Source: a virus (Duplodnaviria > Heunggongvirae > Uroviricota > Caudoviricetes). From it: a stretch of 64,000 bases of DNA. The notes below the pieces were generated by a model. It saw nothing but the letters and a program-made list of their open reading frames with translations. It was not told where the DNA came from and made no database searches. The position numbers were made by a program, and so were the translations under genes. Location of the stretch: IMG/VR virus record IMGVR_UViG_2609459826_000002; one strand, given 5' to 3'. Of the stretch, positions 2,971-54,603 are shown one piece after another. Position 1 is the stretch's first letter. Every line of letters starts with the position of its first letter.

Positions 2971-4466
2971 TATGCAGACTCCTCTGAATACTGAAGACGG
3001 AACTGGTTAACCACGGCAAAGACACGCAACTGGTTAACATAGTCAGGCGGGAACAGCGTGTTCAGGCGGTTCGGATCGCTGGCATCACGCTCCACAACCA
3101 GGTACTGCTTAAACAGTTCGTAGTTTTCCACGATCCCCGCACGCTCAAGCTGACGGTAGGTTGCCAGCAGTTCCCCTTTGATCACCGCCGGGGTGACAAT
3201 CGCCTGACCGGGACCAAAGCGGGTACCGTCACTGGCAAGCTTGTGACGCCCGTACTTACTGGTAATGACGGATTTCAGTTTGCGCAGTACATACGCGCTG
3301 GTATGCAGTGTCTCACTGTCGAGGTAGCTGTTATCCGCAACCCCGTAAGCGTTTTTCCTGTACGTGGTGACATCACGCTGAATGCGCAGTACCCCGCTTT
3401 CGACATACGCCGTTGCCACGCCATGAGACAGCAGGGTCTGTTGTTCGGTCATCGTGAACCGTTTCCCCTTCGGCGCAGGCAGCATACCCACCAGCTCACC
3501 GGTCTGCGTGGGACGTGCCGGATCGTTGCGGATAAACACCGCTGCGCGGGCGGTACGGCTTGCCGCAAGTTCGTCGGCAGGCGTCTGGGTCTCTTTTTCG
3601 TACCCTGCCAGGGTAATGTGCTGCTGGTTAAACTGGTCACCTGCGGTCACCAGTTCTGACAGCGTGCCGATCTTTGCCGTATACACATGACCATACAGCT
3701 GACGCGCATAGCTCCAGCGACCGCTGGTATCGTTCATCTCGGTCACCAGCGTGTTAACGGAGGCCGTGTCGTTGAACGGCAGGCCGATATAATCAAACGG
3801 CTCATCCGCCATTGCAGCCACCGCGCCGGTGAGAACCGGAGCACCCGTTCCGGCGGTACCCGTCGCCACGGCAATCTGTACGCCCGCTGGCAGCACTTCG
3901 CCCCCACCAAAGCCGTAGTAATTGAGGCTGACAGGAATTTCATTCCCGCAAAGCCCCTTATGACGCGCGGTAAGTGTGACCACGCCTGCCGAAGATGAAG
4001 CCGTAAACGGCAGGGCCGGAACGGCATTGATGGCATCTTTGATACTGCTGGCAATCGTCGTGACGTTATCGCCGTTGGTCACCGGAGCCTGCACGCGGGT
4101 ACGTCCCACATAGACATTCACCGTGCCGCTTTCGGTTGCTTCCCCGGTCACCGCCAGCGTAACCGTTGCCGCCGCGCCTGTGGCTTCCGGAACGGCAATC
4201 ACATACAGCTCACCAAACGGGTCTGTCTGGCGATAAGCCTCGACCATACGCGCCAGCTGACTTCCCGCACCACAAATCTGGCGTGCATAGTCTGCCGACG
4301 GCATCAGCACCAGACTGTTGGCAACAATCTCTGCACCGTTATTGGCATGACCAATCAGCAGCGATGCTCCGCTGTCCTGTGCAGTATTCGCAGCCTGGTT
4401 ATCCATTTCCGCATAAAACAGCGGAACCAGCGTATTCGACGGAATGGTGTTAAAGCTTATCGTCAT
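2970..4466 (-). CDS. phage tail sheath protein
   Basis: 498 aa, size and composition of contractile tail sheath; followed by tube, chaperone and tape measure in canonical order. Confidence 0.85.
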   Translation of the reverse strand: MTISFNTIPSNTLVPLFYAEMDNQAANTAQDSGASLLIGHANNGAEIVANSLVLMPSADYARQICGAGSQLARMVEAYRQTDPFGELYVIAVPEATGAAATVTLAVTGEATESGTVNVYVGRTRVQAPVTNGDNVTTIASSIKDAINAVPALPFTASSSAGVVTLTARHKGLCGNEIPVSLNYYGFGGGEVLPAGVQIAVATGTAGTGAPVLTGAVAAMADEPFDYIGLPFNDTASVNTLVTEMNDTSGRWSYARQLYGHVYTAKIGTLSELVTAGDQFNQQHITLAGYEKETQTPADELAASRTARAAVFIRNDPARPTQTGELVGMLPAPKGKRFTMTEQQTLLSHGVATAYVESGVLRIQRDVTTYRKNAYGVADNSYLDSETLHTSAYVLRKLKSVITSKYGRHKLASDGTRFGPGQAIVTPAVIKGELLATYRQLERAGIVENYELFKQYLVVERDASDPNRLNTLFPPDYVNQLRVFAVVNQFRLQYSEESA

Positions 4467-4620
4467 CGGTGTTCACCTTTTTATTCACGCGCCGGATATC
4501 ACCCGCTGCTTCACGGCGCAGCCAGTAGTTGTTCTCGTCAACATTTCGCCCTTCGGCGGGCAAAAGGTCGCCGCGGGCAGGGTCAGGCACTGACCGCCCT
4601 TTAACAGGTTTGACAAACAT
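4450..4620 (-). CDS. small phage protein, unknown function
   Basis: 56-codon ORF (MFVKPVKGRSVPDPARGDLLPAEGRNVDENNYWLRREAAGDIRRVNKKVNTDDDKL) with ATG, overlapping sheath start; below the 60-aa cutoff of the ORF track. Confidence 0.35.
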   Translation of the reverse strand: MFVKPVKGRSVPDPARGDLLPAEGRNVDENNYWLRREAAGDIRRVNKKVNTDDDKL

Positions 4621-21063: not shown

Positions 21064-21386
21064 ACTTTCAGGCCCCTCTCATGTAACCAGTGGGCTGCAC
21101 GCAGCCTGGCGTTTTCCTCACCGGCAAGCAGTGAGCGGATAATCCCGACCGCCTCGCTGTCGTCGTCCTTCACCGCGGTATGAAGCGTTATCCCCCGGGC
21201 CACGCCACGCTTTATCGTGATGACGCCTTTTTTCTCCAGCGCACGAAGATGCTCCACCGCTGCATTCACCGAACGGTATCCCAGCATGGTTGCCACCTCC
21301 TGATTGGTTGGCGGGAAACCACGTTCTTTCTGATAAGAAATCAGCATATCCAGCACCTGCTGCTGGCATTGAGTTAACGTCGTCAT
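21060..21386 (-). CDS. LexA-type N-terminal DNA-binding domain protein
   Basis: 108 aa; QQQVLDMLISYQKERGFPPTNQEVATMLGYRSVNAAVEHLRALEKKGVI winged-helix like LexA N-domain; no peptidase domain. Confidence 0.6.
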   Translation of the reverse strand: MTTLTQCQQQVLDMLISYQKERGFPPTNQEVATMLGYRSVNAAVEHLRALEKKGVITIKRGVARGITLHTAVKDDDSEAVGIIRSLLAGEENARLRAAHWLHERGLKV

Positions 21387-22036
21387 GCCGCCATCTCCCT
21401 GACCAGTTTTTCCGCCTGCTGACGAACCTGCTCCAGAAACGCCTCACCACATGCCTCAAGTTCATCGCGCCCGATGTAGCTGATTGCCGGTCCATTCCAG
21501 GTCTTGTCGAAAACAGCAATAGCACCAGCGAAGAAAGCGCCTGTCGGCACCTGCTTCTCATCCTTCGGGATAAACCAGGCAGGCAGTTCAAAACCAATAC
21601 GCCCGCGAATAAAAGCAATATGATCTGCATCTTCCGGCCACCACACTTCGCTGGTGGCAGCTTTGATCAGGAAAACATAGCGCCCGCCCTTATCACGCAT
21701 GGCACTGGCATGCTTCATGATGTAACGCATGCCGGTGATGTATTGCCCCTCATGCTGACTGGCGCGGCTGTATGGGGGATTACCAAAGGCAGCACCTTTT
21801 AGCTCCGCAAGACGTTCTGACCAGTCATGCGCCAGCGCGTTGTCTTCCGCCGTGTAATACGCAGCACATTTGGCGTTATCACCGTCAGTGAACAGATCCA
21901 GAACAAACGGGCCAAACAGGGTGTTAATTCCCCAGAAAATGTTATCCGGCGTGCGCCACTGATCGCCCACTTCCTTCAGTTCATGGGCTGGTTTGTTCCG
22001 CAGTTCGACCAGCGCCTGGCAATATTTATTACTCAT
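21383..22036 (-). CDS. phage N6-adenine DNA methyltransferase (Dam-like orphan)
   Basis: Motif AFGNPPYS; start at ATG 22036 overlapping upstream stop (TAATG); ORF track begins at a GTG 33 nt further. Confidence 0.8.
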   Translation of the reverse strand: MSNKYCQALVELRNKPAHELKEVGDQWRTPDNIFWGINTLFGPFVLDLFTDGDNAKCAAYYTAEDNALAHDWSERLAELKGAAFGNPPYSRASQHEGQYITGMRYIMKHASAMRDKGGRYVFLIKAATSEVWWPEDADHIAFIRGRIGFELPAWFIPKDEKQVPTGAFFAGAIAVFDKTWNGPAISYIGRDELEACGEAFLEQVRQQAEKLVREMAA

Positions 22037-22524
22037 TAAGCCCCCACGTAATTCCCTGACAGATACCACTCATCACCCGGTACAGCGCGCTTGCTGCTTT
22101 TCCGTAAACACCGCTCACGACGCGCAAGAAAATTGTTTCGCTCTGGCTGGGAGTGGCTTTCACGGAATGCCGCCATCCACACCGTTGCAGCACGACGGTA
22201 TAAGCCCCTGGACTCCAGTTCTTCCGCCTGGCGGGTCAGGCACAAAATCACCCGGGGATCGTTAGTGCCGACATAGAAATTGCGCACAGGTCTGGTTTCA
22301 CGAACTGGTTGTGGTTCCGGCTCCTGCGCTCTCTCAGTCAGGCGTGGGAAATGTCTGCGTGTATCTCCTTCACAACGGTGAGCCACACGCCCACTCTGAC
22401 GTAACTTGCTTGCTGACTGCAGAACGCGCTGCCGTGAGTAACCTGCAAAAGCATCCGCAATGTCTCCGGAAGTACACCCCGGATGGGCTTCAATGAATTT
22501 CTGAACTTCATTCAAAAGACTCAT
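22036..22524 (-). CDS. hypothetical phage protein
   Basis: 162 aa from ATG 22524; Arg-rich; coupled to Dam-like gene. Confidence 0.4.
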   Translation of the reverse strand: MSLLNEVQKFIEAHPGCTSGDIADAFAGYSRQRVLQSASKLRQSGRVAHRCEGDTRRHFPRLTERAQEPEPQPVRETRPVRNFYVGTNDPRVILCLTRQAEELESRGLYRRAATVWMAAFRESHSQPERNNFLARRERCLRKSSKRAVPGDEWYLSGNYVGA

Positions 22525-22526
22525 GA

Positions 22527-23468
22527 TCACCCCCTGAATCCTGCCGGGATCTGGCTGTAGTCCACGTTGTCGTAACTGGCTTTGAAGTACGGGTCTTCGC
22601 GTTTTTCTGTGTACGTGCTGACGGACGGCGATAAGCGCAGGGAAAGCTCATCCCATTTTTCCCGCAGCTTCGACGGGCTGAGCACGTTACGGCACCAGAA
22701 CGGATCGCGGCTGACGCGGCTGTACATCTCGCAGATTTGTTTGTGAGTACGACCATCCTGCACACACATCAGGCGAATTTCGTTTGCCCAGGCTGTCCAG
22801 TTCGGTTCTTTGGGACGAACCACCTCGCCGTCACATTCGGCAGCCTGCTCGTACAGGGCGATGATTTTTTTCCAGAGCCACTGTGCGCAGGTCAAATCAT
22901 CCTGCGTCCCCCACTGGCGCTTTTTAGGGCTGAATACAACCGCATCAGGATGGCGAGTTAAAAAATCCTGTTCAGCCGTCTGCGTGTCCGGTTGCGAAGC
23001 GTCCGGACGAGAAGGTTTTTTATCTGACGGATCATGTTTTGATTTTACTGACGGATCCCCGCCAGATTCTGACGGGTGAAAACCCGCTTTTTTGCCAGAT
23101 TTCGACGCATCAAATTTTGACGGGTCAGATTTTGATGCGTCAGATTTTGACGGGTCAGAATCTGACAGTTGAGAAAATGCCGCTGCCTGAAGCTTCGCAA
23201 CGTTAAGCTGATAAACATTCGACGCATTGCGGTTACCCTGGCGACGCGCCTTACGCGTTAACCAGCCTTCTGCTTCCAGCCGTGCGATAGCCGTTCTGAC
23301 GGTACTCATCCCCGCGCCAATCTGACGGGCAATGGTTTCAATTGATGGCCAGCACACACCTTCGTCATTACTGAAATCAGCCAAGCGGGCCATAATTGCC
23401 ACGCTGGATAACTTCATGCCTGATGCAGCGCAACCATCCCATACATAGCCGGTTAATTTAGTGCTCAT
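22527..23468 (-). CDS. phage replication initiator-like protein (N-terminal winged-helix, internal iteron repeats)
   Basis: 313 aa; N-terminal HTH; internal peptide repeats SDPSKSDASKSDPSKFDASKS encoded by tandem ~15-bp DNA repeats, as in lambda O carrying ori. Confidence 0.6.
   Translation of the reverse strand: MSTKLTGYVWDGCAASGMKLSSVAIMARLADFSNDEGVCWPSIETIARQIGAGMSTVRTAIARLEAEGWLTRKARRQGNRNASNVYQLNVAKLQAAAFSQLSDSDPSKSDASKSDPSKFDASKSGKKAGFHPSESGGDPSVKSKHDPSDKKPSRPDASQPDTQTAEQDFLTRHPDAVVFSPKKRQWGTQDDLTCAQWLWKKIIALYEQAAECDGEVVRPKEPNWTAWANEIRLMCVQDGRTHKQICEMYSRVSRDPFWCRNVLSPSKLREKWDELSLRLSPSVSTYTEKREDPYFKASYDNVDYSQIPAGFRG
23041..23171. repeat. tandem ~15-bp iteron-like direct repeats (candidate replication origin)
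   Basis: About 8 copies of ATTTTGACGGGTCAG-like units, last four contiguous at 15-bp period (23112-23171), inside replication gene. Confidence 0.5.
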
Positions 23469-23477
23469 GACCGACCT

Positions 23478-23816
23478 CTATTTCCCTGAATTTACGACGA
23501 AACTGTTCGAGCGGACTGAAGCATTCATGCTCATAACCTTCGCGGAGGTAGATAACCCGTTGTGTTTCCGGCTCCCAACGAATGACTCTGACGGGCACTC
23601 CGTAGTGATCTTTGAACCAGCGGTTAACTTGTCGCAAAGGACTGTCTCCTTCTGCCGGTTGAAATCACCCACAGCCCACTCTGCAAAGCTGTGGGTTACA
23701 ATTTCCCTGTCACCTGGTACATTCACTGCATAGCAATATTCCACCTTCGCTTTTCCACCCGGTACAGGAAGCGCAATCAGTTGCGAGCGACGGTAGTGTG
23801 TTGTTAAACTGTTCAT
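23478..23816 (-). CDS. hypothetical protein
   Basis: 112 aa ORF between regulatory and replication genes; an overlapping plus-strand ORF also exists, assignment uncertain. Confidence 0.3.
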
Positions 23817-24382
23817 GCGTTAGTTTCTCCACAACCAGAAGCAATCGACGCCACGACGCCCGGAGCTGCACACTCGCGGGCGTCATTACTTTCTGAAATG
23901 CAAAAAATTTTGTAGACAAGTGCTGCATGCTCCTGCAGCCTCGAAATTGAGAGATACAGCTCGTCGTTAATTGCTGTCTTCTCATGCGGTTCCACTACAC
24001 CGTCTTCGATTGCTGAACGAATCTGTTTTGAATAACTGCCGATCTGTTCAATGACTTCCAGCAGACGCTGGTTAATATCGGCGTTGTCCACATCCTCGAC
24101 GTCAGGAAGAGACACAAAGACGCCATTTGCAGACTGCGCCACAGCATCAGCAATGAAGTGAGTGCCACCAGCACGCTGTAAAACCATTGCCCATCCCAGC
24201 GGGAAAATCTGATCGCCATCTGCACGAAGGCGGTTGAATAAAGCGTTTTCTGTTACATCGAGCCAGTCAGCCGCTTCAGCGTAACCACCCGGCAACGCCG
24301 CGATAGTTTTTCTGACAGCTTTCACGTACCACTCAGGCTGTTTTTCTATTTTCCAGTGATGCTTACCCACGATTAGCCTCAT
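23813..24382 (-). CDS. hypothetical early-region protein (possible CII/YdaT-like regulator)
   Basis: 189 aa ORF immediately downstream of cro-like gene; function inferred from position only. Confidence 0.4.
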
Positions 24383-24413
24383 CGTTCTGTGGTTAAAAAT
24401 TGAAAGTGTTCTG

Positions 24414-24614
24414 CTAATCTTTCGGATAGATATCCGGTCTTAAGTCAGATTTCGTAATTGCACCTGACGTGCATTGCTCAAGTTTTTTAGCCAGCACAAA
24501 ACTGGCTTTTTTATAGCCATTGAAAACCAGCCGTAAGTAGCCAGGTGTTGAGCCAACTTTTCCGGCCAACTCGCCCTGCTGTTCTTTGGTTAAAGAGTCC
24601 CAATACGCTTTCAT
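24414..24614 (-). CDS. Cro/YdaS-like HTH regulator
   Basis: 66 aa from ATG 24614 with GGAGG RBS; divergent from repressor gene; SLTKEQQGELAGKVGSTPGYLRLV HTH. Confidence 0.65.
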   Translation of the reverse strand: MKAYWDSLTKEQQGELAGKVGSTPGYLRLVFNGYKKASFVLAKKLEQCTSGAITKSDLRPDIYPKD

Positions 24615-24620
24615 ACAATA

Positions 24621-24689
24621 TGTACCTCCAGTGTACATATTACATGATTAAAATGAACCTTCAAGATACTTGTACCTTAACGGTACAAG
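24621..24689. promoter_or_regulatory. immunity-region operators/divergent promoters
   Basis: Inverted repeat CTTGTACC-n5-GGTACAAG at 24669-24689 plus further TGTAC half-sites at 24621 and 24632 between cro-like and repressor genes. Confidence 0.45.
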
Positions 24690-24704
24690 GGTTTTAATTT
24701 CGTT

Positions 24705-25379
24705 ATGAAAACAATCCATGACATCCGGCGGTCTAACGCCAGAAAACTGAGAGATGGTGTTGGCGGGAATTCTTCCTTTGCCACTATGATTGATCGCGAG
24801 CCAACCCAGACCAGCAGGTTTATGGGAGATGGTGCTACTAAAAATATCGGTGACAGCATGGCACGACACATCGAAAAATGTTTCGACCTGCCTGTCGGAT
24901 GGCTCGATCAAGAACACCAGACAACGAACATCACAAAAAAACCTGATGTTTCAATCACTAATAAACAAATCACATTAGTCCCTGTCATATCATGGGTACA
25001 GGCCGGAGCATGGAAAGAAGTTGGATATTCTGAGGTTGATTTGAGCACAGCAGAAACGTATCCCTGCCCTGTACCCTGTGGGGAAATGACTTATATCTTG
25101 CGGGTGATAGGTGATTCAATGATTGATGAGTACCGCCCGGGAGACATGATTTTTGTCGATCCTGAAGTACCTGCCTGCCACGGTGACGACGTTATTGCAT
25201 TGATGCACGATACAGGTGAAACCACCTTCAAAAGGTTGATAGAAGATGGGACACAGCGTTATCTCAAAGCGTTAAACCCAAACTGGCCTGAGCCTTACAT
25301 TAAGATCAACGGTAATTGCTCTATAATTGGAACTGTGATTTTCTCAGGAAAACCAAGAAGATACAAAATCAAAGCCTAA
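24705..25379 (+). CDS. prophage repressor, LexA/CI-like S24 autopeptidase family
   Basis: 224 aa; N-terminal HTH; C-terminal VIGDSM (Ser) and TFKRL (Lys) motifs of S24 peptidases. Confidence 0.85.
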   Translation: MKTIHDIRRSNARKLRDGVGGNSSFATMIDREPTQTSRFMGDGATKNIGDSMARHIEKCFDLPVGWLDQEHQTTNITKKPDVSITNKQITLVPVISWVQAGAWKEVGYSEVDLSTAETYPCPVPCGEMTYILRVIGDSMIDEYRPGDMIFVDPEVPACHGDDVIALMHDTGETTFKRLIEDGTQRYLKALNPNWPEPYIKINGNCSIIGTVIFSGKPRRYKIKA

Positions 25380-26454: not shown

Positions 26455-26500
26455 CGGTACCAGCTTGTACCCTTGCTTCCGGCTGGTACCGTCCTTTTTA
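26455..26500 (+). terminator. rho-independent terminator-like hairpin
   Basis: Perfect 10-bp GC-rich stem CGGTACCAGC/GCTGGTACCG followed by TCCTTTTTA. Confidence 0.4.
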
Positions 26501-26712
26501 CAAAACAGAGAAGAGCATCACCGGACGACGGGCTCATAACCCAATCCATCCGGGCGGCTGCCACCGCAGGTGTTCTTCTCTGTTTTGTGGAGAAACTAAC
26601 CGCCCCTACGGGGGCATTTATGGAAATGTAATTGACTCAATAATCGCCGGACGGTGAGGGCTTCCTTTTACCCGAATTCAGCGCGGTGCAGCGCATATAC
26701 GTGGAGAACAAA

Positions 26713-27249
26713 ATGTCATTTATTAAAACTTTTTCCGGGAAGCATTTTTATTATGACAGGATAAATAAAGACGAAATCGTTATTAACGATATCGCGGTTT
26801 CCCTTTCAAATATCTGTCGCTTTGCAGGACATCTTTCACACTTCTACAGTGTCGCCCAACATGCGGTGCTTTGCAGCCAGCTGGTGCCACAGGAATTTGC
26901 TTTTGAAGCTTTAATGCATGATGCAACAGAAGCATATTGCCAGGACATCCCCGCACCACTGAAACGACTTCTTCCTGACTATAAACGGATGGAAGAAAAA
27001 ATAGACGCCGTAATCCGTGAGAAATACGGGTTACCTCCTGTTATGAGCACGCCAGTGAAATATGCCGATCTCATTATGCTGGCAACCGAACGCCGCGATC
27101 TCGGGCTTGATGATGGCTCTTTCTGGCCTGTACTGGAAGGTATCCCGGCAACAGAGATGTTCAAAGTGATTCCACAGGCACCGGGCCATGCCTACGGGAT
27201 GTTTATGGAACGTTTTAACGAGTTATCGGAGTTACGCAAATGCGCATGA
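26713..27249 (+). CDS. HD-domain phosphohydrolase (YfbR/YfdR-like 5'-deoxynucleotidase)
   Basis: 178 aa from ATG 26713 (GGAGA RBS); H...HD motif (SVAQHAV...LMHDATEAY). Confidence 0.7.
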   Translation: MSFIKTFSGKHFYYDRINKDEIVINDIAVSLSNICRFAGHLSHFYSVAQHAVLCSQLVPQEFAFEALMHDATEAYCQDIPAPLKRLLPDYKRMEEKIDAVIREKYGLPPVMSTPVKYADLIMLATERRDLGLDDGSFWPVLEGIPATEMFKVIPQAPGHAYGMFMERFNELSELRKCA

Positions 27250-27602
27250 ATGTTTTCGAAATGGAAGGGTTTCTTCGTGGGAGATGTGTACCGCGAGATC
27301 TGAAAGTGAATGAAACAGATGCTGAATACCTGGTGCGTAAATTCGATACGCTTGAAGCTAAATGTGCAGCACAGGAAAACAAAGTAATACCAGTGTCAAC
27401 TGAACTGCCACCAGCAAATAAAAGTGCTTTGTTATTCGATGCTAACGGAGAAGGCTGGCTAATTGGCTGGCGTTCTCTCTGGTACACCTGGGGACAAAAA
27501 GAAACCGGAGAATGGCAGTGGACATTTCAGGTCGGGGACCTTGAAAACGTCAATATCACTCACTGGGCAGTAATGCCAAAAGCACCGGAGGCTGGAGCAT
27601 AA
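27246..27602 (+). CDS. hypothetical phage protein
   Basis: ATGA overlap with upstream gene; Trp-rich. Confidence 0.45.
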   Translation: MNVFEMEGFLRGRCVPRDLKVNETDAEYLVRKFDTLEAKCAAQENKVIPVSTELPPANKSALLFDANGEGWLIGWRSLWYTWGQKETGEWQWTFQVGDLENVNITHWAVMPKAPEAGA

Positions 27603-27907
27603 TGACCACTTTTACCGACAAAGAACTGATTAAAGAAATTAAAGAGCGTATCAGCAGCCTTGACGTGCGAGACGATATTGAGCGCCGTGCTTATGAAATC
27701 GCACTCCTATCTCTGGAAGTAGAACCAGATGAACGCGAAGCTTATGAATTATTCATGGAAAAGCGTTTCGGTGACTTAGTAGATCGTCGGAGAGCAAAAA
27801 ACGGCGATAACGAATACATGGCATGGGATATGACTCTCGGTTGGATCGTCTGGCAGCAACGAGCAGGTATCCATTTTTCAACAATGTCACAACAAGAGGT
27901 GAAATAA
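27602..27907 (+). CDS. hypothetical phage protein
   Basis: 101 aa, TAATG coupling on both sides. Confidence 0.45.
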   Translation: MTTFTDKELIKEIKERISSLDVRDDIERRAYEIALLSLEVEPDEREAYELFMEKRFGDLVDRRRAKNGDNEYMAWDMTLGWIVWQQRAGIHFSTMSQQEVK

Positions 27908-28257
27908 TGGAGCCATACAGCCTCACACTCGATGAGGCCTGTCATTTTCTCAAGATATCCAGACCGACTGCCATTAACTGGATACGCACAGGGCGTCTTC
28001 AGGCAACACGCAAAGATCCCACTAAGAATAAATCTCCTTACCTCACAACACGACAAGCCTGCATTGCGGCTCTTCAGTCTCCGCTGCATACTGTCCAGGT
28101 GAGCGCGGGTGATGGCATAACAGAGGAAAGAAAATGTCACTCTTCCGCAGAGGTGAAATATGGTACGCCAGTTTCACATTGCCGAACGGTAAAAGATTTA
28201 AACAGTCTCTTGGAACAAAGGACAAAAGGCAGGCGACAGAACTCCATGACAAGCTAA
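27907..28257 (+). CDS. xis: excisionase-like protein
   Basis: ATG 27907; [32 protein letters not shown]; immediately upstream of and overlapping integrase gene; 3' boundary uncertain. Confidence 0.5.
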
Positions 28258-29297
28258 AGGCTGAAGCATGGCGGGTCAGCAAACTTGGTGAAATACCTGA
28301 TATAACGTTCGAGGAAGCGTGTGTCAGGTGGCTTGAAGAGAAAGCACATAAAAAATCACTGGACGATGACAAAAGCCGGATCGGATTCTGGCTTCAACAT
28401 TTCGCAGGAATGCAACTAAGAGACATTACTGAATCAAAAATTTATTCAGCAATGCAGAAAATGACGAACCGGCGTCATGAGGAAAACTGGAAACTCAGGG
28501 CAGAAGCATGCAGAAAAAAAGGGAAACCTGTTCCAGAATACACGCCAAAACCAGCGTCCGTTGCAACGAAGGCTACGCATCTTTCATTTATAAAGGCCCT
28601 ACTAAGAGCCGCAGAGCGTGAATGGAAAATGCTGGATAAGGCACCAATTATTAAAGTGCCTCAACCAAAGAATAAACGGATCCGCTGGCTGGAGCCCCAT
28701 GAAGCACAAAGGCTGATTGATGAATGTCCGGAGCCATTAAAGTCTGTTGTTGAATTTGCACTGGCAACAGGCTTAAGACGCTCGAACATCATCAACCTTG
28801 AATGGCAACAAATAGATATGCAGCGCCGGGTGGCATGGATAAACCCGGAAGAGAGTAAATCAAACCGCGCAATCGGCGTTGCGCTGAATGATACTGCATG
28901 TCGCGTTTTGAAAAAACAAATCGGGAATCATCACCGTTGGGTATTTGTGTACAAGGAAAGCTGCACCAAACCAGACGGAACGAAAGCGCCAACAGTAAGG
29001 AAGATGCGGTATGACGCAAACACAGCCTGGAAAGCGGCGCTGAGACGGGCTGGTATTGATGATTTCAGATTTCACGACTTGAGACACACCTGGGCAAGTT
29101 GGCTGGTTCAAGCCGGAGTCCCGTTGTCAGTGTTACAGGAAATGGGAGGCTGGGAGTCTATCGAAATGGTTCGTCGATATGCTCACCTTGCACCTAATCA
29201 CCTTACCGAACACGCACGGCAAATAGACTCGATCCTGAACCCATCGGTCCCAAATTTGTCCCAGTCAAAAAATAAGGAAGGTACTAATGATGTGTAA
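28134..29297 (+). CDS. int: lambdoid tyrosine integrase (IntD/DLP12-like)
   Basis: 387 aa; near-identity to E. coli DLP12 IntD as recalled; catalytic region HDLRHTWAS...VRRYAHL; stop 15 nt before att core. Confidence 0.9.
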
Positions 29298-29311
29298 CTT
29301 ATTGATTTAAA

Positions 29312-29360
29312 TGGTGCCGATAATAGGAGTCGAACCTACGACCTTCGCATTACGAATGCG
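29312..29360 (-). other. attachment-site core: 49-nt copy of the 3' end of tRNA-Thr(CGU) (thrW-type), not a complete tRNA gene
   Basis: Minus strand reads CGCATTCGTAATGCGAAGGTCGTAGGTTCGACTCCTATTATCGGCACCA (anticodon loop with CGT, T-arm, acceptor 3' strand, CCA); sequence upstream of it does not continue the tRNA. Confidence 0.75.
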
Positions 29361-29542
29361 ACGTTATTATATTTTTACCCCTTTAAAAACCTACTCTTAA
29401 AACAAGTAATTCATTATAAAACATTGTGTTATGAAAAACACCTGTTGATAAAAATTGACAGGTGTTGATGTTTATTCCCCCATTTTACTTACACCAGCAG
29501 TTACATTATGGTGATGTAACATTTCTCATCTGGAGCCCCAAA

Positions 29543-30850
29543 ATGGCACTTCCAAGACAAAAACTCACCTTCGAGCGCATTCGAAAATTTGCTTTATCTG
29601 AAGGAAAAACCCAGGCATTTCTTTGGGATGCGGACGTAACTTCCCTGGCATGTCGGGCAACTCGCGGAACAAAAGCTTTTGTGTTCCAAAGCGTATATGC
29701 GGGAAAAACCCTTCGCATGACCATTGGCAACATTAACGATTGGAGGATTGATGATGCCAGGGCCGAAGCCAGGCGGCTGCAAACATTAATCGATACTGGG
29801 ATAGATCCGCGTATAGCTAAGGCAGAAAAAATTGCTGAAGCGGAATCACAGCAGGATGAATCTCGTAAAACGAAGGTAACCTTCACAAGCGCCTGGGAAG
29901 ATTACCTTGAAGAATTGAGAACCGGAATCAGCGCAAAAACTAAACGCCCATATTCTACTCGATACATTGCCGATCACATTAACTTGTCCAGCCGTGGAGG
30001 GGAAAGTAAAAAAAGAGGCCGGGGCCCAACCTCGGCTGGACCATTGGCTAGCTTACTCGACCTACCGTTATCGGAACTAACACCAGAGAACATTGCCGCA
30101 TGGCTAAGTACAGAGAGACAAAATCGGCCTACCGTCACTGCTCATGCCTACCGGCTGTTGCGTGCATTTATCAAATGGGCTAATTACCAGAAAAAATATC
30201 AGGGAATAATCCATGGCGATATTGCACAAGATCATAACGTGAGAAAAGTGGTTCCAGTATCAGCGAGTAAAGCGGGAGATTGCTTACAAAAAGAACAGTT
30301 AAAAATCTGGTTCAGTGCCGTACGTAGCCTCAATAATCCCATTGCATCGGCCTATCTCCAAGTACTTTTGCTCACCGGTGCACGGCGTGAAGAAATTGCG
30401 TCACTTCGGTGGTCTGACGTAGATTTCAAATGGTCAAGCATGAGGATTAAAGACAAGATCGAAGGCGAACGTATCATCCCTCTCACTCCTTATGTTTCTG
30501 AGCTGTTAAGTGCGCTAGCGCAATTCCCAAATTCTGACGTAAATAAGGAGGGTTGGGTTTTCAGAAGTAACAGCAAAAGTGGCAAAATTATTGAACCGCG
30601 TTCAGGACACAACAGAGCGTTAGCTCGAGCTGAGTTACCACATATCAGCCTTCACGGCTTACGCCGTAGTTTTGGCACTCTTGCTGAATGGGTTGAAGTG
30701 CCAACAGGTATTGTTGCTCAAATTATGGGACACAAACCAAGTGCACTGGCGGAAAAACACTACCGCCGTCGTCCGTTAGATCTGTTGCGCAAATGGCATG
30801 AAAAAATTGAGAGGTGGATCTTACAGCAAGCAAATATTGTAAAAAAATAA
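29543..30850 (+). CDS. int: P4-type tyrosine integrase
   Basis: 435 aa from ATG 29543 (GGAG RBS); catalytic motifs ...HGLRRSFGT...IMGHK...YRR; begins about 180 bp from tRNA fragment. Confidence 0.9.
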   Translation: MALPRQKLTFERIRKFALSEGKTQAFLWDADVTSLACRATRGTKAFVFQSVYAGKTLRMTIGNINDWRIDDARAEARRLQTLIDTGIDPRIAKAEKIAEAESQQDESRKTKVTFTSAWEDYLEELRTGISAKTKRPYSTRYIADHINLSSRGGESKKRGRGPTSAGPLASLLDLPLSELTPENIAAWLSTERQNRPTVTAHAYRLLRAFIKWANYQKKYQGIIHGDIAQDHNVRKVVPVSASKAGDCLQKEQLKIWFSAVRSLNNPIASAYLQVLLLTGARREEIASLRWSDVDFKWSSMRIKDKIEGERIIPLTPYVSELLSALAQFPNSDVNKEGWVFRSNSKSGKIIEPRSGHNRALARAELPHISLHGLRRSFGTLAEWVEVPTGIVAQIMGHKPSALAEKHYRRRPLDLLRKWHEKIERWILQQANIVKK

Positions 30851-30972
30851 CCGTTGATATGCGTTGATTTCATTTAATATCAATAGATTACAGAACAACA
30901 TCCATCGTTGACATAAGTGTATTTTAAGGTTTAAATTCCATCGTCCACTTTTAAATCAGGAGATAAAGCATT

Positions 30973-31422
30973 ATGTCTAATTCTTTGATGAGTTCTGCGC
31001 AAACAAGCTCACAGGCTCGAATAGTACGAGCCGTGCGTAAGATCATAGTTGTTCGTTCGAGTAAGCAGCGACAAACCTGTGCTGAGTCCATATTTCAGGA
31101 AAGACAGATGAACATCAGGATTCGAGCTGCTCTTGGACACCTTAATGAAAAAAACTCTGTATACAAAAAAAACAATCGTGATAAAACTTTGGGAGTTTTT
31201 TTTGCACGTAACATCTCGCACAAAAATCAGGCCGAAAACTCGCAAGGTAATGCGTCTAAATCAACTAAAAGTACCTCATCCGGTTCAAGCGAAGGTAGTG
31301 ACCCTGACCCTGAGGCTTATTCAAGCTTGAATTTTTCGTTTTCTTTTTGGTCCTTTCTTTCCCTTTTAATTTCATTACTCTTTGTATATGCCTGCATCTC
31401 AATCATTGAGGTGGTAGCATGA
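30973..31422 (+). CDS. hypothetical low-complexity protein with C-terminal hydrophobic helix
   Basis: 149 aa, AGGAG RBS, Ser/Lys-rich, C-terminal FSFWSFLSLLISLLFVYACISII; AT-rich. Confidence 0.35.
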   Translation: MSNSLMSSAQTSSQARIVRAVRKIIVVRSSKQRQTCAESIFQERQMNIRIRAALGHLNEKNSVYKKNNRDKTLGVFFARNISHKNQAENSQGNASKSTKSTSSGSSEGSDPDPEAYSSLNFSFSFWSFLSLLISLLFVYACISIIEVVA

Positions 31423-31640
31423 GCATATATGAGCAATCTAAAACACCTCTATCTGAGCTTGTTTCCACAGGTGAGTTAGCACATCTACTAAATCTTAAAG
31501 CCCAAACAATTAGAAAATGGCTTTGCCAAGACAAACTGCCTAATGGTTTACCGCGCCCCAAGAAAATTAACAGCCGACATTATTGGTTACGCAAAGACAT
31601 TGATAGATTCCTATTAACCTTCTCAGCATTTTGTAACTAA
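31419..31640 (+). CDS. AlpA-family phage/island regulatory protein
   Basis: 73 aa; LSELVSTGELAHLLNLKAQTIRKWLCQDKLP typical AlpA HTH; GAGGTGG RBS. Confidence 0.8.
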   Translation: MSIYEQSKTPLSELVSTGELAHLLNLKAQTIRKWLCQDKLPNGLPRPKKINSRHYWLRKDIDRFLLTFSAFCN

Positions 31641-31775
31641 CATAGGCCTCAGGATAATAACTCACCAGCTATTCTAAAGAATAGCTGGCTTAATTAACAT
31701 AAACAATCCATTAATAGCATAGAATAAATCATCACTGTTTATCACATTTTACATTAACGAAATTCAAGGATACAT

Positions 31776-32540
31776 ATGAAAAAACGCATCACTTTCAGCG
31801 CAAACAAAAAATCTACTATTGATGCAATTGATGACTATAGCCGTGCAAAAGGATACTCTAGGTCAGAGGTGATATCATTTTTGTTAAACGCCACAGCCCC
31901 AGCATTGAATAAAATAACATCGCAATATCATATAGCTCAAACTTTGGAGTCAACATTAGGCTGTATTTTTGAAGAGAAGGCCCCCTCAATCGCACGGGGT
32001 GAGCCAAAATTAACTTACGAAGAGTTTTTTTATTCCGTCTGGAACACTCACATTCGACACCGGAACGAGGTTGTCGATCAAGATTTTTATGCGCACAAAA
32101 TACCTCATGATAAGATGGGTAAGAGCGAAAAAAAATTAATTCATGAAAAGCTCTCATACATTATAAAAAGTTTCAATGTGAAAAAAGCAATTTTTATTTA
32201 CACAGATCGGCGCGTGAACCGCAAACATCTCATTGCAGGAGGGTTATCTAATATCATACTGATAAAGGACACAGTCTACGATGGTTGTTTTTTTGATTTG
32301 AGCAGCATTGTGATTATGCCAATCTTTGAACTTATTACATTTGGAGTTGAGGCAGTATTGAAAAGAAATAAAACTCCCCCTAAACAATCATGCTATTGCT
32401 GGATACCAATTTATTACACAAATGATCTAGCGGTAATGGTTCCGGTAATTGCCGAAGGCGATACACCTCAAAAGGCGATGAAAGGAGGAGATGCCATCAT
32501 TATTAATCCCTTTAACGGTGAAGTAAACCATACATTCTGA
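31776..32540 (+). CDS. hypothetical protein with N-terminal ribbon-helix-helix-like region and uncharacterised C-terminal domain
   Basis: 254 aa, AT-rich; N-terminus KRITFSANKKSTIDAIDDYSRAKGYSRSEVISFLL resembles RHH (CopG/Arc) fold; AAGGA RBS. Confidence 0.5.
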   Translation: MKKRITFSANKKSTIDAIDDYSRAKGYSRSEVISFLLNATAPALNKITSQYHIAQTLESTLGCIFEEKAPSIARGEPKLTYEEFFYSVWNTHIRHRNEVVDQDFYAHKIPHDKMGKSEKKLIHEKLSYIIKSFNVKKAIFIYTDRRVNRKHLIAGGLSNIILIKDTVYDGCFFDLSSIVIMPIFELITFGVEAVLKRNKTPPKQSCYCWIPIYYTNDLAVMVPVIAEGDTPQKAMKGGDAIIINPFNGEVNHTF

Positions 32541-32623
32541 TACCAATGTTAAGCATAACCACTTAGTTTACATACATCTCGACAGTATGGAGTTATTGCC
32601 TAATAGCTAGATGAGAGCAAAAG

Positions 32624-32800
32624 ATGCCTACTAACAAAACAAAACCAAAGAAAATGCAGGGAAGACCTGAAGGAAGTAAATATTCTTATCTAATTCAGAA
32701 TGAGAAGGCTAAGCATTACTCTCAATCCAAGGTGGCAAAGATCTTAGGAATAAGCATTTCCACGGTAAAAAGATACTGGGATAATGGTATCTTTGGATGA
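32624..32800 (+). CDS. small HTH protein
   Basis: 58 aa (MPTNKTKPKKMQGRPEGSKYSYLIQNEKAKHYSQSKVAKILGISISTVKRYWDNGIFG); below ORF-track cutoff. Confidence 0.4.
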   Translation: MPTNKTKPKKMQGRPEGSKYSYLIQNEKAKHYSQSKVAKILGISISTVKRYWDNGIFG

Positions 32801-33002
32801 TTATAATTGCAGAGTTACTTTTTAAGTATTTTACTGCACGGGTAATGGGTTGATAACAAGTTTTATTGTTGGAAAGGTATTATAAAGCAATCATTACTAC
32901 CAACAGTTAATTAACATAACTAATTACAGACATTCAACTATGTCTTATCATATTACTATATACGGCTATCGAAAGCCGTAGGACTAGCTACAGGATCGAA
33001 AC

Positions 33003-33623
33003 ATGGAATTATATCATGGTTCACATGGTGAGCATGTGCTCGCCTATAAAAAAAATATTGAACGAGTCGTCAATGATGCACTCAGTGAATTCCCCAGAAC
33101 AATGGCATTACGTGTTGATGTACATTACCCCCCCATTCTAGACAGAGGTGATACTGTTTGCTGTTTTCCTAATCTAGAGCCTGGTGCCATATCCCGTTTC
33201 CGTAATGCATTAAATGCCATGTTGGAGGCCAATGAGAGAGCCAGAGCCGCCAACGGTAAAAGAATATATCCAAACCGAGTTCGTCATGTTTGGGTAAGGG
33301 AGTTTTCCGAAGAGGGAAAATGTCATTTTCATATTGGTCTTTTTTTTAACAAAGATGCTTATTACCATTTAGGTGATTATGAGGCTGAAAGCAATTTAAG
33401 GATGATGATTGTAAGAGCATGGTATAGCGCACTGGGATTGGAACTGGATGATTATCCGGGATTGGTTCACTACCCTGAAAATTGTCGTTATATATTAGAC
33501 GTCAATGATTTTAACTTTGAAGGAGAATACAATAAATTACTGAATCGTCTTGACTACCTGGCTAAACTTGATACAAAAGTATACGGAGATGGCGACCGTA
33601 GCTTCGGCTGCAGTCGCGGGTAA
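33003..33623 (+). CDS. YagK/YfjJ-family (inovirus Gp2-like) protein
   Basis: 206 aa; size and sequence style of YagK/YfjJ proteins of P4-type islands (recalled family). Confidence 0.65.
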   Translation: MELYHGSHGEHVLAYKKNIERVVNDALSEFPRTMALRVDVHYPPILDRGDTVCCFPNLEPGAISRFRNALNAMLEANERARAANGKRIYPNRVRHVWVREFSEEGKCHFHIGLFFNKDAYYHLGDYEAESNLRMMIVRAWYSALGLELDDYPGLVHYPENCRYILDVNDFNFEGEYNKLLNRLDYLAKLDTKVYGDGDRSFGCSRG

Positions 33624-51592: not shown

Positions 51593-51919
51593 ATGACTAA
51601 AAATACACGTTTTTCCCCCGAGGTCCGTCAACGGGCAGTTCGTATGGTTCTGGAAAGTCAGGGCGAATATGACTCACAATGGGCGGCAATTTGTTCCATT
51701 GCCCCAAAGATTGGCTGTACACCAGAGACTCTGCGTGTGTGGGTTCGTCAGCATGAGCGGGATACCGGGAGTGGTGATGGTGGACTCACCACCGCTGAAC
51801 GTCAGCGTCTGAAAGAGCTGGAACGTGAAAATCGTGAACTGCGCCGCAGTAACGATATCCTTCGCCAGGCTTCCGCTTATTTTGCGAAGGCGGAGTTCGA
51901 CCGCCTCTGGAAAAAATAA
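51593..51919 (+). CDS. IS3-family transposase OrfA (IS629-like)
   Basis: 108 aa HTH/leucine-zipper OrfA; A6 frameshift window at orfA/orfB junction. Confidence 0.8.
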
Positions 51920-52333
51920 TGCCGCTGCTGGATAAGCTGCGTGAGCAGTACGGGGTCGGACCGGTATGCAGTGAACTGCATATTGCCCCGTCAACGTATT
52001 ACCACTGTCAGCAACAGCGACATCATCCTGATAAACGCAGTGCCCGTGCTCAGCGCGATGACTGGCTGAAGAGAGAGATACAGCGCGTATACGATGAAAA
52101 TCATCAGGTGTACGGTGTGCGTAAAGTCTGGCGCCAGTTGTTACGCGAAGGTATCAGGGTGGCCAGATGTACAGTGGCGCGCCTCATGGCGGTTATGGGA
52201 CTTGCCGGTGTTCTCCGGGGTAAAAAGGTCCGTACTACCGTCAGCCGGAAAGCCGTTTCCGCAGGCGACCGCGTAAACCGTCAGTTCGTGGCAGAACGTC
52301 CTGACCAGCTGTGGGTGGCTGATTTTACTTACG
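51919..52333 (+). pseudogene. IS3-family transposase OrfB, 5' segment (interrupted)
   Basis: Homology to OrfB up to ...QLWVADFTY then intron 5' end GTGTG. Confidence 0.6.
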
Positions 52334-54603
52334 GTGTGCCCGGAGTTCAGGGCGGGCATGGATGCTTAAATGAACCGCGAGTCTGTCTGGAATATTGAAC
52401 CGGTAACTCACGATGAGAAACCCAACAATCCCACCGGGTGTGACGGTGGAGAACCTGAGCGGCAGTGACCTGCGGCATGCCCGCAGGGTGATGTAACCCG
52501 CTGACAACGGGGATTGAGGCGAGATCACTAAGCCGAGATGATCCTCAAGGTTAAGTACTGAAAGGCTGAAGAACATGAACCCGTTAATCCGCCTCTGTGG
52601 GTTGAAAACGTCACCACGGCCTACGTGATCTGACAGGCCGTGCAGGAGGAACTGGCAGTGATACGTAAGCACTGCCGGTCGAAGGTGTTTTGACATGTAT
52701 GCGAAACACCGGGGCAGCAGCGTCTATCACGCTTGCGTTGCTGACTTCTGCCAACTTGCGGCAAGCAAGGATAAAGAGTGCGACGGGCAGCCTCCTCAGT
52801 ATGCCTGAGTCCAGGCAGGTAAACCGGGGAAGGTCAGCGACGGATGTTAAGGGGGCATGGCTCCGATGACGCGCTGGCTGGCGGAGCTTCCGTAGTAGTC
52901 CGCGATGGGGAAAGTCCATTACATGGCGAAGGGAAGCAGTTTGAATGTGTTTGCGACGTGAATTAACTGACCTAACGAGGTGAAGACCTTTGATAATCAG
53001 CGAAATGCAACGCAAGCTTGCCACATGGGCAGTCACCGATCCGTCCCTACGGATTCAACGGCTGCTGCGTCTGATAACACAACCAGAATGGCTGGCTGAA
53101 GCGGCGCGGATCACGCTTTCATCAAAGGGGGCCCATACCCCCGGCGTTGATGGCGTGAACAAAACAATGCTACAGGCCAGACTGGCTGTTGAGCTGCAAA
53201 TCCTCAGGGATGAATTACTCTCAGGCCACTACCAGCCCTTGCCCGCCAGACGGGTTTACATCCCTAAAAGCAACGGCAAACTGCGACCACTGGGTATCCC
53301 CGCGTTGCGGGATCGTATTGTTCAGCGGGCCATGCTGATGGCGATGGAGCCGATATGGGAGAGTGATTTTCATACGCTCTCATATGGCTTCCGGCCTGAG
53401 CGCAGTGTCCACCACGCTATCCGCACGGTGAAATTACAGCTCACAGACTGTGGTGAAACCCGGGGACGCTGGGTGATTGAAGGCGACCTGTCCAGTTACT
53501 TCGACACCGTACATCATCGACTGCTGATGAAGGCTGTACGCCGCAGGATCAGTGACGCACGTTTCATGACTCTGCTGTGGAAAACCATCAAGGCGGGACA
53601 TATCGATGTCGGTCTCTTTCGGGCGGCCAGTGAAGGTGTGCCACAGGGCGGTGTTATATCGCCGCTATTATCGAACATCATGCTGAATGAGTTCGATCAA
53701 TACCTGCATGAGCGCTACCTGAGCGGGAAAGCCAGAAAAGATCGGTGGTACTGGAATAACAGTATCCAACGGGGCCGAAGTACGGCGGTCAGAGAAAACT
53801 GGCAGTGGAAACCCGCGGTGGCGTACTGCCGCTATGCCGATGATTTTGTCCTCATCGTCAAAGGCACCAAAGCACAGGCGGAAGCCATCAGGGAGGAGTG
53901 TCGGGGTGTGCTCGAAGGCAGTCTGAAACTCAGGCTGAACATGGATAAGACTAAAATCACCCATGTTAATGACGGCTTTATCTTTCTGGGGCACAGGATC
54001 ATTCGCAAACGCAGTCGTTATGGCGAGATGCGAGTGGTCTCAACGATCCCGCAGGAGAAAGCCAGAAACTTCGCCGCATCGCTGACAGCACTGTTATCAG
54101 GCAACTACAGTGAAAGCAAAGTCGATATGGCTGAACAACTCAACCGAAAACTGAAAGGCTGGGCCATGTTCTATCAGTTCGTTGATTTTAAGGCCAAAGT
54201 CTTCAGTTATATCGACCGTGTCGTGTTCTGGAAGCTGGCTCACTGGCTGGCCCGCAAATACCGTACAGGTATCGCTTCCCTGATGAGGTGGTGGTGTAAA
54301 TCACCGAAACCGGGTCAGAGCAAAACGTGGGTTTTATTTGGTAAAACCAATCACGGCAAGCTCAGCGGCGAAATACTGTACCGGTTGGTGGGGCAAGGCA
54401 AGAAGCTGTTCCGCTGGCGGCTACCCGAAGGTAATCCCTATCTGAGGACGGAGACCAGAAACACGTATACATCGCGCTTTACAGAAGTGGCAATGGCGTT
54501 CGCCAGCATTTAAATGGAGAGCCGGATGCGCTGAAAGGTGCACGTCCGGTTCGGGGAGGAGAGGCAGGGAAATAGTCCGACTACGCCCTGCCTCTTACTC
54601 TAC
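52334..54603 (+). mobile_element. bacterial group II intron (about 2.27 kb)
   Basis: 5' GTGTG; domain V GAGCCGGATGCGCTGAAAGGTGCACGTCCGGTTC at 54519-54552; ends ...CTAC; encodes RT/maturase; flanking exon frame is restored across the junction. Confidence 0.8.
52990..54513 (+). CDS. group II intron-encoded reverse transcriptase/maturase
   Basis: 507 aa; RT motifs incl. YADD (AYCRYADDFVLIV); maturase X region; no HNH endonuclease domain evident. Confidence 0.9.
   Translation: MIISEMQRKLATWAVTDPSLRIQRLLRLITQPEWLAEAARITLSSKGAHTPGVDGVNKTMLQARLAVELQILRDELLSGHYQPLPARRVYIPKSNGKLRPLGIPALRDRIVQRAMLMAMEPIWESDFHTLSYGFRPERSVHHAIRTVKLQLTDCGETRGRWVIEGDLSSYFDTVHHRLLMKAVRRRISDARFMTLLWKTIKAGHIDVGLFRAASEGVPQGGVISPLLSNIMLNEFDQYLHERYLSGKARKDRWYWNNSIQRGRSTAVRENWQWKPAVAYCRYADDFVLIVKGTKAQAEAIREECRGVLEGSLKLRLNMDKTKITHVNDGFIFLGHRIIRKRSRYGEMRVVSTIPQEKARNFAASLTALLSGNYSESKVDMAEQLNRKLKGWAMFYQFVDFKAKVFSYIDRVVFWKLAHWLARKYRTGIASLMRWWCKSPKPGQSKTWVLFGKTNHGKLSGEILYRLVGQGKKLFRWRLPEGNPYLRTETRNTYTSRFTEVAMAFASI

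Follow-up and report, generated by a model that had tools for sequence, protein, structure and literature searches.

A candidate replication origin of the lambda plan within the O-like initiator gene of SfII/SfIV/CPS-53-type prophages

The initiator gene and its repeats

The DNA analysed here, a stretch of 64,000 nucleotides hereafter called the window, contains a prophage in which the gene for an O-like replication initiator belongs to a lambdoid early-right operon. A cI-type repressor (24705-25379, plus strand), a cro-like gene and a cII-like gene are located upstream of it, and PerC/YfdN-like, Dam methyltransferase (21383-22069, minus strand), LexA-like, RusA and KilA-N genes are found downstream. 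A scan of 22400-24800 for sigma-70 promoters detected none. The initiator of 313 residues matches over its full length PHROG 391 'replication initiation O-like' (E = 8e-136), and its gene is at least 99% identical to SfIV gp41, to the 'O protein family' gene of SfII and to a gene of phage Kati. It also represents the intact form of yfdO, a gene of the E. coli K-12 prophage CPS-53. The gene and the two domains that could be delineated in it are as follows.

22527-23468, minus strand: replication-initiator gene, O-like, 313 aa, 942 bp (ORF list; phrog_391; phage and E. coli matches)
23175-23468, minus strand: N-terminal winged-helix DNA-binding domain, codons 1-98, presumed iteron reader (Pfam HTH_36; saturated synonymous sites)
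22638-22943, minus strand: C-terminal domain homologous to the lambda O C-domain, residues 176-277 (BLASTP, tblastn)

The N-terminal domain was recognized in a Pfam scan as HTH_36 at residues 23-70 (E = 4e-11), its other Pfam matches being GntR- or MarR-like winged helices, and a PDB sequence search with the initiator returned weak MarR-type matches to this same domain and nothing else. RP-C and DnaD_N were matched by the protein below threshold only. Pfam Phage_rep_O gave no match to the initiator at E <= 0.01, NCBIfam had no family for it, and Foldseek retrieved nothing significant for its model from the PDB. In the AlphaFold2 model, the N-domain is of low confidence and the C-domain is predicted to be helical, with pLDDT values of 82-93. 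Between the two, residues 102-167 have a pLDDT below 50 and are devoid of secondary structure, and are thus predicted to form a disordered linker.

Tandem repeats of about 15 bp had been predicted inside this 313-aa gene, and they were indeed found at that place. Tandem Repeats Finder reported 23096-23159 with a period of 15, 4.3 copies and 81% matches; a second repeat search agreed on the 15-bp phasing and added further degenerate copies to the left. The elements of the array and of the adjoining DNA are listed below, the iteron sequences being given as read on the coding (minus) strand.

23094-23166: five tandem 15-bp units I1-I5, each with a 13-bp imperfect palindrome GTCAGAWTCTGAC (repeat searches)
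23154-23166: I1, GTCAGATTCTGAC, perfect palindrome
23139-23151: I2, GTCAAAATCTGAC
23124-23136: I3, ATCAAAATCTGAC
23109-23121: I4, GTCAAAATTTGAT
23094-23106: I5, GTCGAAATCTGGC
23074-23093: I5-I6 spacer, AAAAAAGCGGGTTTTCACCC, TTTTnACCC conserved (consensus of loci)
23061-23073: I6, sixth iteron, GTCAGAATCTGGC (motif match, recurring spacing)
23048-23057: half-site GATCCGTCAG with a GATC (Dam) site at 23054-23057 (motif, codon D138)
23024-23033: second half-site GATCCGTCAG with a GATC site at 23030-23033 (motif, codon D146)
23010-23049: AT-rich stretch, candidate DNA-unwinding element (GC 0.30)

The 13-bp palindromes are parted by two or three poorly conserved bases. Five units lie in strict 15-bp phase, and not the last four as originally described. 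The start of the sixth iteron is 33 bp from that of I5 and 48 bp from that of I4, a distance to the preceding motif match which 34 related loci also show. The original count of about eight copies holds if the two half-sites are included; otherwise there are six iterons. These six 13-bp sites (23061-23166) occupy codons 101-136 of 313, all their spacings are multiples of three and all of them are in one reading frame. They are translated, in agreement with the SDPSKSD-type peptide repeats first noticed, as SDSDP/SKSDA/SKSDP/SKFDA/SKSGK, with HPS and DPS further along. When TCARAWTCTGA was searched with at most one mismatch, seven distinct sites were found in the 64-kb window, five of which fall within the 104 bp of 23062-23165.

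A terminator-like hairpin followed by a T-run, CGGGTGAAAACCCG CTTTTTTGCC, was also observed at 23073-23086 on the plus strand, antisense to the rep gene. It spans the edge of I6 and the left end of the spacer between I5 and I6, and only its TTTTnACCC part is conserved in relatives.

On the promoter-distal side, the iterons adjoin the AT-rich stretch 23010-23049, which is conserved across loci and whose GC content is the minimum of the gene (gene mean 0.53). This 30%-GC stretch is overlapped by the two GATCCGTCAG half-sites.

Constraint on the DNA across species

In a scan at one genome per species, the same N-domain was found to be encoded at 74 loci, their sources including Shigella, Pantoea, Erwinia, Providencia, Proteus, Yersinia, Rahnella, Kosakonia and Citrobacter, and 68 of these loci were taken into a codon alignment. 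As the search patterns had been placed in the N-domain, this sample was not selected on the repeats. The iteron motif was matched 317 times in 16.3 kb of linker from the 68 loci versus 45 times in 840 kb of flanks, i.e. an enrichment of about 360-fold. Because the motif concentrates both at 23062-23165 in the window and in the linkers of these loci, the repeats cannot be ascribed to chance. The logo of the 317 units displays a conserved, palindromic core TCA-R-A-W-TCT-GA next to three contiguous bases that are nearly free and that form the middle codon of D-x-S, read as P, A, T, G, V or R.

The number of motif matches per locus ranges from 2 to 9 across species. E. coli prophages mostly contain five tandem units, but six are present in N32, AH21C062 and GPEC1176, and eight in EC-14-2-9. 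Free variation in repeat number among prophages had been put forward as a sign that would speak against an origin. The variation is there, but it is a poor sign of this kind because functional origins differ likewise, lambda having four iterons and the Stx phages, such as the lambda-like 933W and P27, six (PMC7466680). In 933W and P27, unlike in the window, the O and P proteins and the iteron sequences are of the lambda type (PMC7466680).

The most striking feature of the alignment is the distribution of synonymous changes. Over codons 5-97 of the 68 loci, synonymous usage is near saturation, with a typical entropy of 1.5-2.3 bit for four- and six-fold codons; it collapses over codons 99-161 and rises again from about codon 162. 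The mean third-position information is 0.56 bit upstream, 1.26 bit in codons 99-161 and 0.48 bit downstream. In the same way, 59.7% of the codons for identical residues differ from the reference in the N-domain, 16.0% in the linker and 71.8% downstream, and in every one of the 67 loci compared, synonymous differences are fewer in the linker than in the N-domain (Wilcoxon p = 1e-12; column-wise Mann-Whitney p = 3e-21). Some codons are frozen, namely S107 (TCA, 67/67), S112 (TCA, 63/63), F130 (TTT, 64/64), S140 (TCA, 59/59), V141 (GTA, 66/66) and S143 (TCA, 61/61). The Asp codon depends on the site, GAC being used within the iterons and GAT where a GATC is formed. For instance, D138 is encoded by GAT in all 68 loci, with CCG or CCA as the next codon, and D146 is GAT in all 60 loci that have Asp there; the GATC at 23054 is thereby conserved in 68/68 loci and that at 23030 in 60/68.

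At the peptide level the order is reversed, amino-acid identity being 64% in the linker and 82% in the N-domain. In Providencia, a D residue has become V and yet the DNA core TCAAAATCTGT is kept. Since the synonymous sites of the linker are preserved in a peptide that is less conserved and predicted to be disordered, selection must act on the DNA, over about 22986-23174.

22986-23174: whole DNA-constrained segment, codons 99-161, candidate origin (third-position information, synonymous differences)

The pattern of conservation fits selection on a DNA motif, and neither a peptide repeat nor a recent exchange of the whole segment. The left bound of 23041 initially given to the element fell short by about 55 bp, and left out one half-site and the remainder of the constrained segment. 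The locus also illustrates cleanly how a DNA element concealed in a coding sequence can be exposed by the loss of synonymous variation.

Modularity and distribution

The N-domain and the repeats are inherited together. They are joined to two unrelated classes of C-domain, Phg_2220_C in 52 of 67 loci and the window (lambda-O) type in the other 15, and they stay joined at loci whose flanking genes vary. Citrobacter phage phiNP has only the N-domain and the repeats in common with the window, and phage mEp460_4F5 only the part after the repeats. In both comparisons, the modules break at the edge of the array, just after the repeats.

Where the allele has another N-domain, this position of the gene is occupied by a distinct set of repeats, as was observed for mEp460_4F5, Stx2a_1447 and the Z0117 type. 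In the mEp460_4F5 allele (locus L004, 2950-3250), five CATCnGGTCAnTTTGACC-like repeats of about 23 bp follow each other at a spacing of 23-24 bp, hence in different reading frames, and three AT-rich 12-bp repeats TATTCTCTGTAG come after them; this set has the appearance of a second origin with another specificity, located at the equivalent position of the gene. Stx2a_1447 has a repeat set of its own, and the Z0117-type allele has TTGACCCGTCAA at a 15-bp spacing. As in the window, these three alleles encode an HTH N-domain, followed directly by the repeats and then by a C-domain ending in ...IPxGFRG, and their downstream module (yfdN-like, Dam, LexA-like, RusA, KilA-N) is also alike. They differ from the window in the sequences and spacings of the repeats and in the N-domains, and for this reason they probably represent separate origin specificities. 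The half-sites of A-type and B-type alleles differ slightly, CTGAC versus TTGAC; this co-variation of recognition helix and half-site is only suggestive, and too slight to serve as proof. A scan of viral contigs for the B-type allele returned close relatives only, at 91-99% identity.

The initiator gene is widespread, being present, whole or partial, in 3357 of 5426 complete E. coli genomes. The candidate origin segment is found in 2060 of these 5426 genomes, the truncated copy of K-12 CPS-53 included, as well as in SfII and SfIV, which convert the serotype of Shigella, and in prophages throughout the Enterobacterales. The match of the CPS-53 copy (yfdO) to the window covers 22960-23235, with iterons, AT-rich stretch and C-domain kept, and ends at 23235. 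As this copy lacks the first ~78 codons, the N-terminal quarter that encodes the DNA-binding domain, K-12 would harbor an orphan candidate origin deprived of its reader.

In parallel, the otherwise unrelated C-domains were seen to share the ending ...D(Y/T)xxIPxGFRG, encoded by the last ~24 codons of rep (window 22527-22600; locus L083, 2501-2576). Many phages whose O genes differ elsewhere, among them SfV, mEp460, cdtI and Stx2 phages, agree at 97-99% identity over the final 76 bp of the gene. This tail could serve as a short motif contacting a common host partner, or else be a junction for recombination with the yfdN module that lies downstream.

A candidate origin and the alternatives

Lambda O was cited from the start as a precedent for iterons within a coding sequence; the four annotated iterons of lambda occupy codons 117-145 of 299, at spacings of 20, 24 and 23 bp. 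Each lambda iteron is an inverted repeat of 18-19 bp bound by an O dimer, and a 39-bp AT-rich region comes after the iterons (PMC6022878, PMC7466680). Both loci have inverted-repeat iterons in the middle of the gene, between the N-domain and C-domain codons, with an AT-rich region of about 40 bp next to them (PMC6022878, PMC7466680). The window protein aligns with lambda O by BLASTP at E = 7e-26 with 31% identity over 216 residues (70-277 versus O 78-270), its C-domain, residues 176-277, being homologous to O 182-270. Both genes belong to an early-right operon, after cro- and cII-type genes. The window therefore shares with lambda the plan of a specificity domain, iterons in the linker codons and an O-type C-domain, and it presents sequence features of a lambda-type origin, namely repeats in mid-ORF that are imperfect inverted repeats, an AT-rich neighbour and constraint at the DNA level. 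It differs from lambda by its N-domain (HTH_36 and not Phage_rep_O), by six 13-bp palindromes, five of them at an in-frame spacing of 15 bp, instead of four 18-19-bp iterons at 20-24 bp, by two extra GATC-bearing half-sites in the AT-rich part, and by a prophage devoid of a P gene. Membership of the lambda O family is hence supported by C-domain homology, and neither by a Phage_rep_O N-domain nor by a downstream P gene.

Some resemblance to iteron plasmids was also noticed, such as a winged-helix initiator and directly repeated sites adjoining an AT-rich region. P1 oriR and oriC have GATC-rich unwinding regions, and the AT-rich part of the window likewise has GATC. Unlike in these replicons, the repeats of the window lie within the initiator coding sequence, at a 15-bp spacing and not at the roughly two helical turns of iteron plasmids, there are two GATC sites only, no DnaA box was found within 9 kb of the initiator gene, and the initiator has no above-threshold match to a RepA- or pi-type protein.

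The segment of about 22986-23174 is very probably the replication origin of the SfII/SfIV/CPS-53-type prophage, built on the lambda plan with iterons, an unwinding element and an O-like initiator. The original prediction of a prophage origin and initiator-binding array is thus upheld as a sequence-based reading, which draws on the anatomy of the repeats, the selection on the DNA, the co-inheritance with the N-domain, the lambda-like placement with an AT-rich stretch and the homology of the C-domain to that of lambda O. Because SfII, SfIV and Kati carry nearly the same gene (identity of at least 99%), the module works in real phages. Several points count against the origin reading: the 15-bp spacing is out of helical phase, unlike the 20-24 bp of lambda; the alternating half-sites could be read by a dimer in more than one register; all iterons are in one reading frame, as in-frame duplication would also give; the prophage has no P, DnaC or DnaB gene; and the model of the N-domain is of low confidence.

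Plasmid iterons serve copy control too, and the segment could accordingly be a protein-binding array other than an origin, made of autoregulatory or copy-control operators of the initiator or of sites for another protein of phage or host, or else a conserved junction at which recombination between modules is promoted. Constraint at the DNA level is by itself silent on what binds, and the segment is positioned exactly at the mosaic boundary between the N- and C-domain modules. A recent exchange would nevertheless have conserved all positions, whereas here the residues diverge more than in the N-domain and particular bases are fixed, and the N-domain and repeats remain together at loci with different flanking genes. 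Place in the gene, AT-rich neighbour and lambda O homology match an origin, with which a regulatory role could moreover coexist. Position-specific conservation, AT-rich neighbour and lambda homology are accommodated less well by a regulatory array or a junction, and we consider both readings unlikely.

That the repeats are a mere low-complexity peptide linker (SKSDP-like) born from replication slippage, in DNA without a function of its own, is very improbable. Such an origin of the repeats would agree with units that are all in frame, with a copy number that shifts by whole 15-bp units and with the predicted disorder of the region. It is contradicted by the synonymous sites, which are nearly frozen in the 68 species-level genomes even though residues change freely (D to V, with a fully variable middle codon). 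Concerted evolution within an array could account neither for the same codons being chosen in different genera nor for the conservation seen in the distal, non-tandem part.

The constraint could also reflect an mRNA structure or a DNA cruciform, for example one that regulates translation or stability. The transcribed strand does fold far better than shuffled sequences (-64.5 kcal/mol, z = -5.4), but such a score is expected of any array of palindromes. The arms of the palindromes show no compensatory changes: at the inner pair, A faces C most often, in 196 units, G-C being seen in 152 units and A-T in 44, and departures at other pairs are mismatches as well. Rfam at its gathering threshold detected no family at the repeats. 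Pairing of this kind was therefore rejected and is highly unlikely to account for the data.

Finally, an overlapping gene in another frame is hardly credible as the cause of the constraint: most loci do have the +1 sense frame free of stops across the array (a 60-aa ORF at 23045-23227 in the window), but it was rejected since an ATG precedes the array in this frame in 35 of 68 loci only, start and stop positions vary, the constrained DNA runs past its stop codon and most other frames contain stop codons.

If the segment is the prophage origin, its functioning can be pictured on the model of lambda, and we infer initiator binding, unwinding, helicase recruitment and origin firing by analogy. 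On induction, transcription of the early-right operon (cro-like, cII-like, rep) would yield the initiator. Its N-terminal winged-helix domain, probably as a dimer, would bind the six palindromic iterons that lie within the codons of its own disordered linker. The resulting nucleoprotein array would then strain the adjoining AT-rich stretch of 40 bp, with its two half-sites and two GATC, until it opens, and the lambda-O-type C-domain would bring in the host DnaB helicase.

This last step raises the question of helicase loading. No lambda-P homologue was found in the window (best E = 2.7), and in the matching annotated prophage no helicase or loader gene (P, DnaC, DnaB) is listed. Given that the prophage is without a P-type loader, the helicase would be recruited either directly or with the help of host DnaC or of some other, unrecognised partner. 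In 2 of the 74 related loci, L052 from Lonsdalea (3825-4562) and L009 from Erwinia (from about 3924 onward), a lambda-P homologue comes directly after the initiator gene, the Pfam Phage_lambda_P match in related loci with P reaching E = 7e-62. Its presence there supports the initiator role and implies that the cassette serves both O-P and initiator-only modules. The IPxGFRG tail common to unrelated C-domains could be the real contact with the host helicase machinery.

The GATC pair in the candidate origin raises the possibility that firing is under methylation control. A Dam- or MT-A70-type adenine methyltransferase is encoded within 3 kb downstream in 44 of the 74 related loci; adenine methylases of this sort are common in lambdoid phages anyway. 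That a lambda-O-type origin would fire without any P-type loader and be gated by adenine methylation is, as a combined proposal, doubtful.

Another protein of the prophage is worth mentioning in this context, an HD-domain protein of the YfdR type encoded in the early-left region (26686-27249, plus strand). YfdR is reported to bind DnaA, and the yfdQRST cluster, when overexpressed, to inhibit initiation at oriC (PMC4776307). The YfdR-type protein could free host replication proteins for the phage origin.

A lambda-style origin is an ordinary kind of element, but it is apparently undescribed so far for this very common E. coli/Shigella prophage family, the literature searched containing neither a description of it nor an experiment on initiator binding or origin activity for the SfII/SfIV/CPS-53 (yfdO) family. 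As a testable candidate, it gives a handle on how O-type initiators work without P, and the N-domain with 190 bp forms a compact cassette for orthogonal replicons. For studies of defence systems that recognise phage origins, it also represents a defined target; the Lamassu protein LmuB was found to be enriched at the iterons of the lambda O gene (bioRxiv 10.1101/2025.04.02.646746).

Some other elements were observed in the window. Past the prophage integrase, a second integrase and an 'inovirus Gp2 family' gene are present, going by similar E. coli genomes (26500-33500), which suggests a tandem integration of two elements at a single attachment site. Rfam gave a weak, partial match to a tRNA at 29323-29379 on the minus strand (29.7 bit); ARAGORN predicted no tRNA. 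Outside the prophage, Rfam identified an ALIL pseudoknot, the frameshift signal of the IS3 family, at 51874-51990 (plus strand, 120.9 bit) and the catalytic domain of a group II intron at 54517-54603 (plus strand, 64.9 bit).
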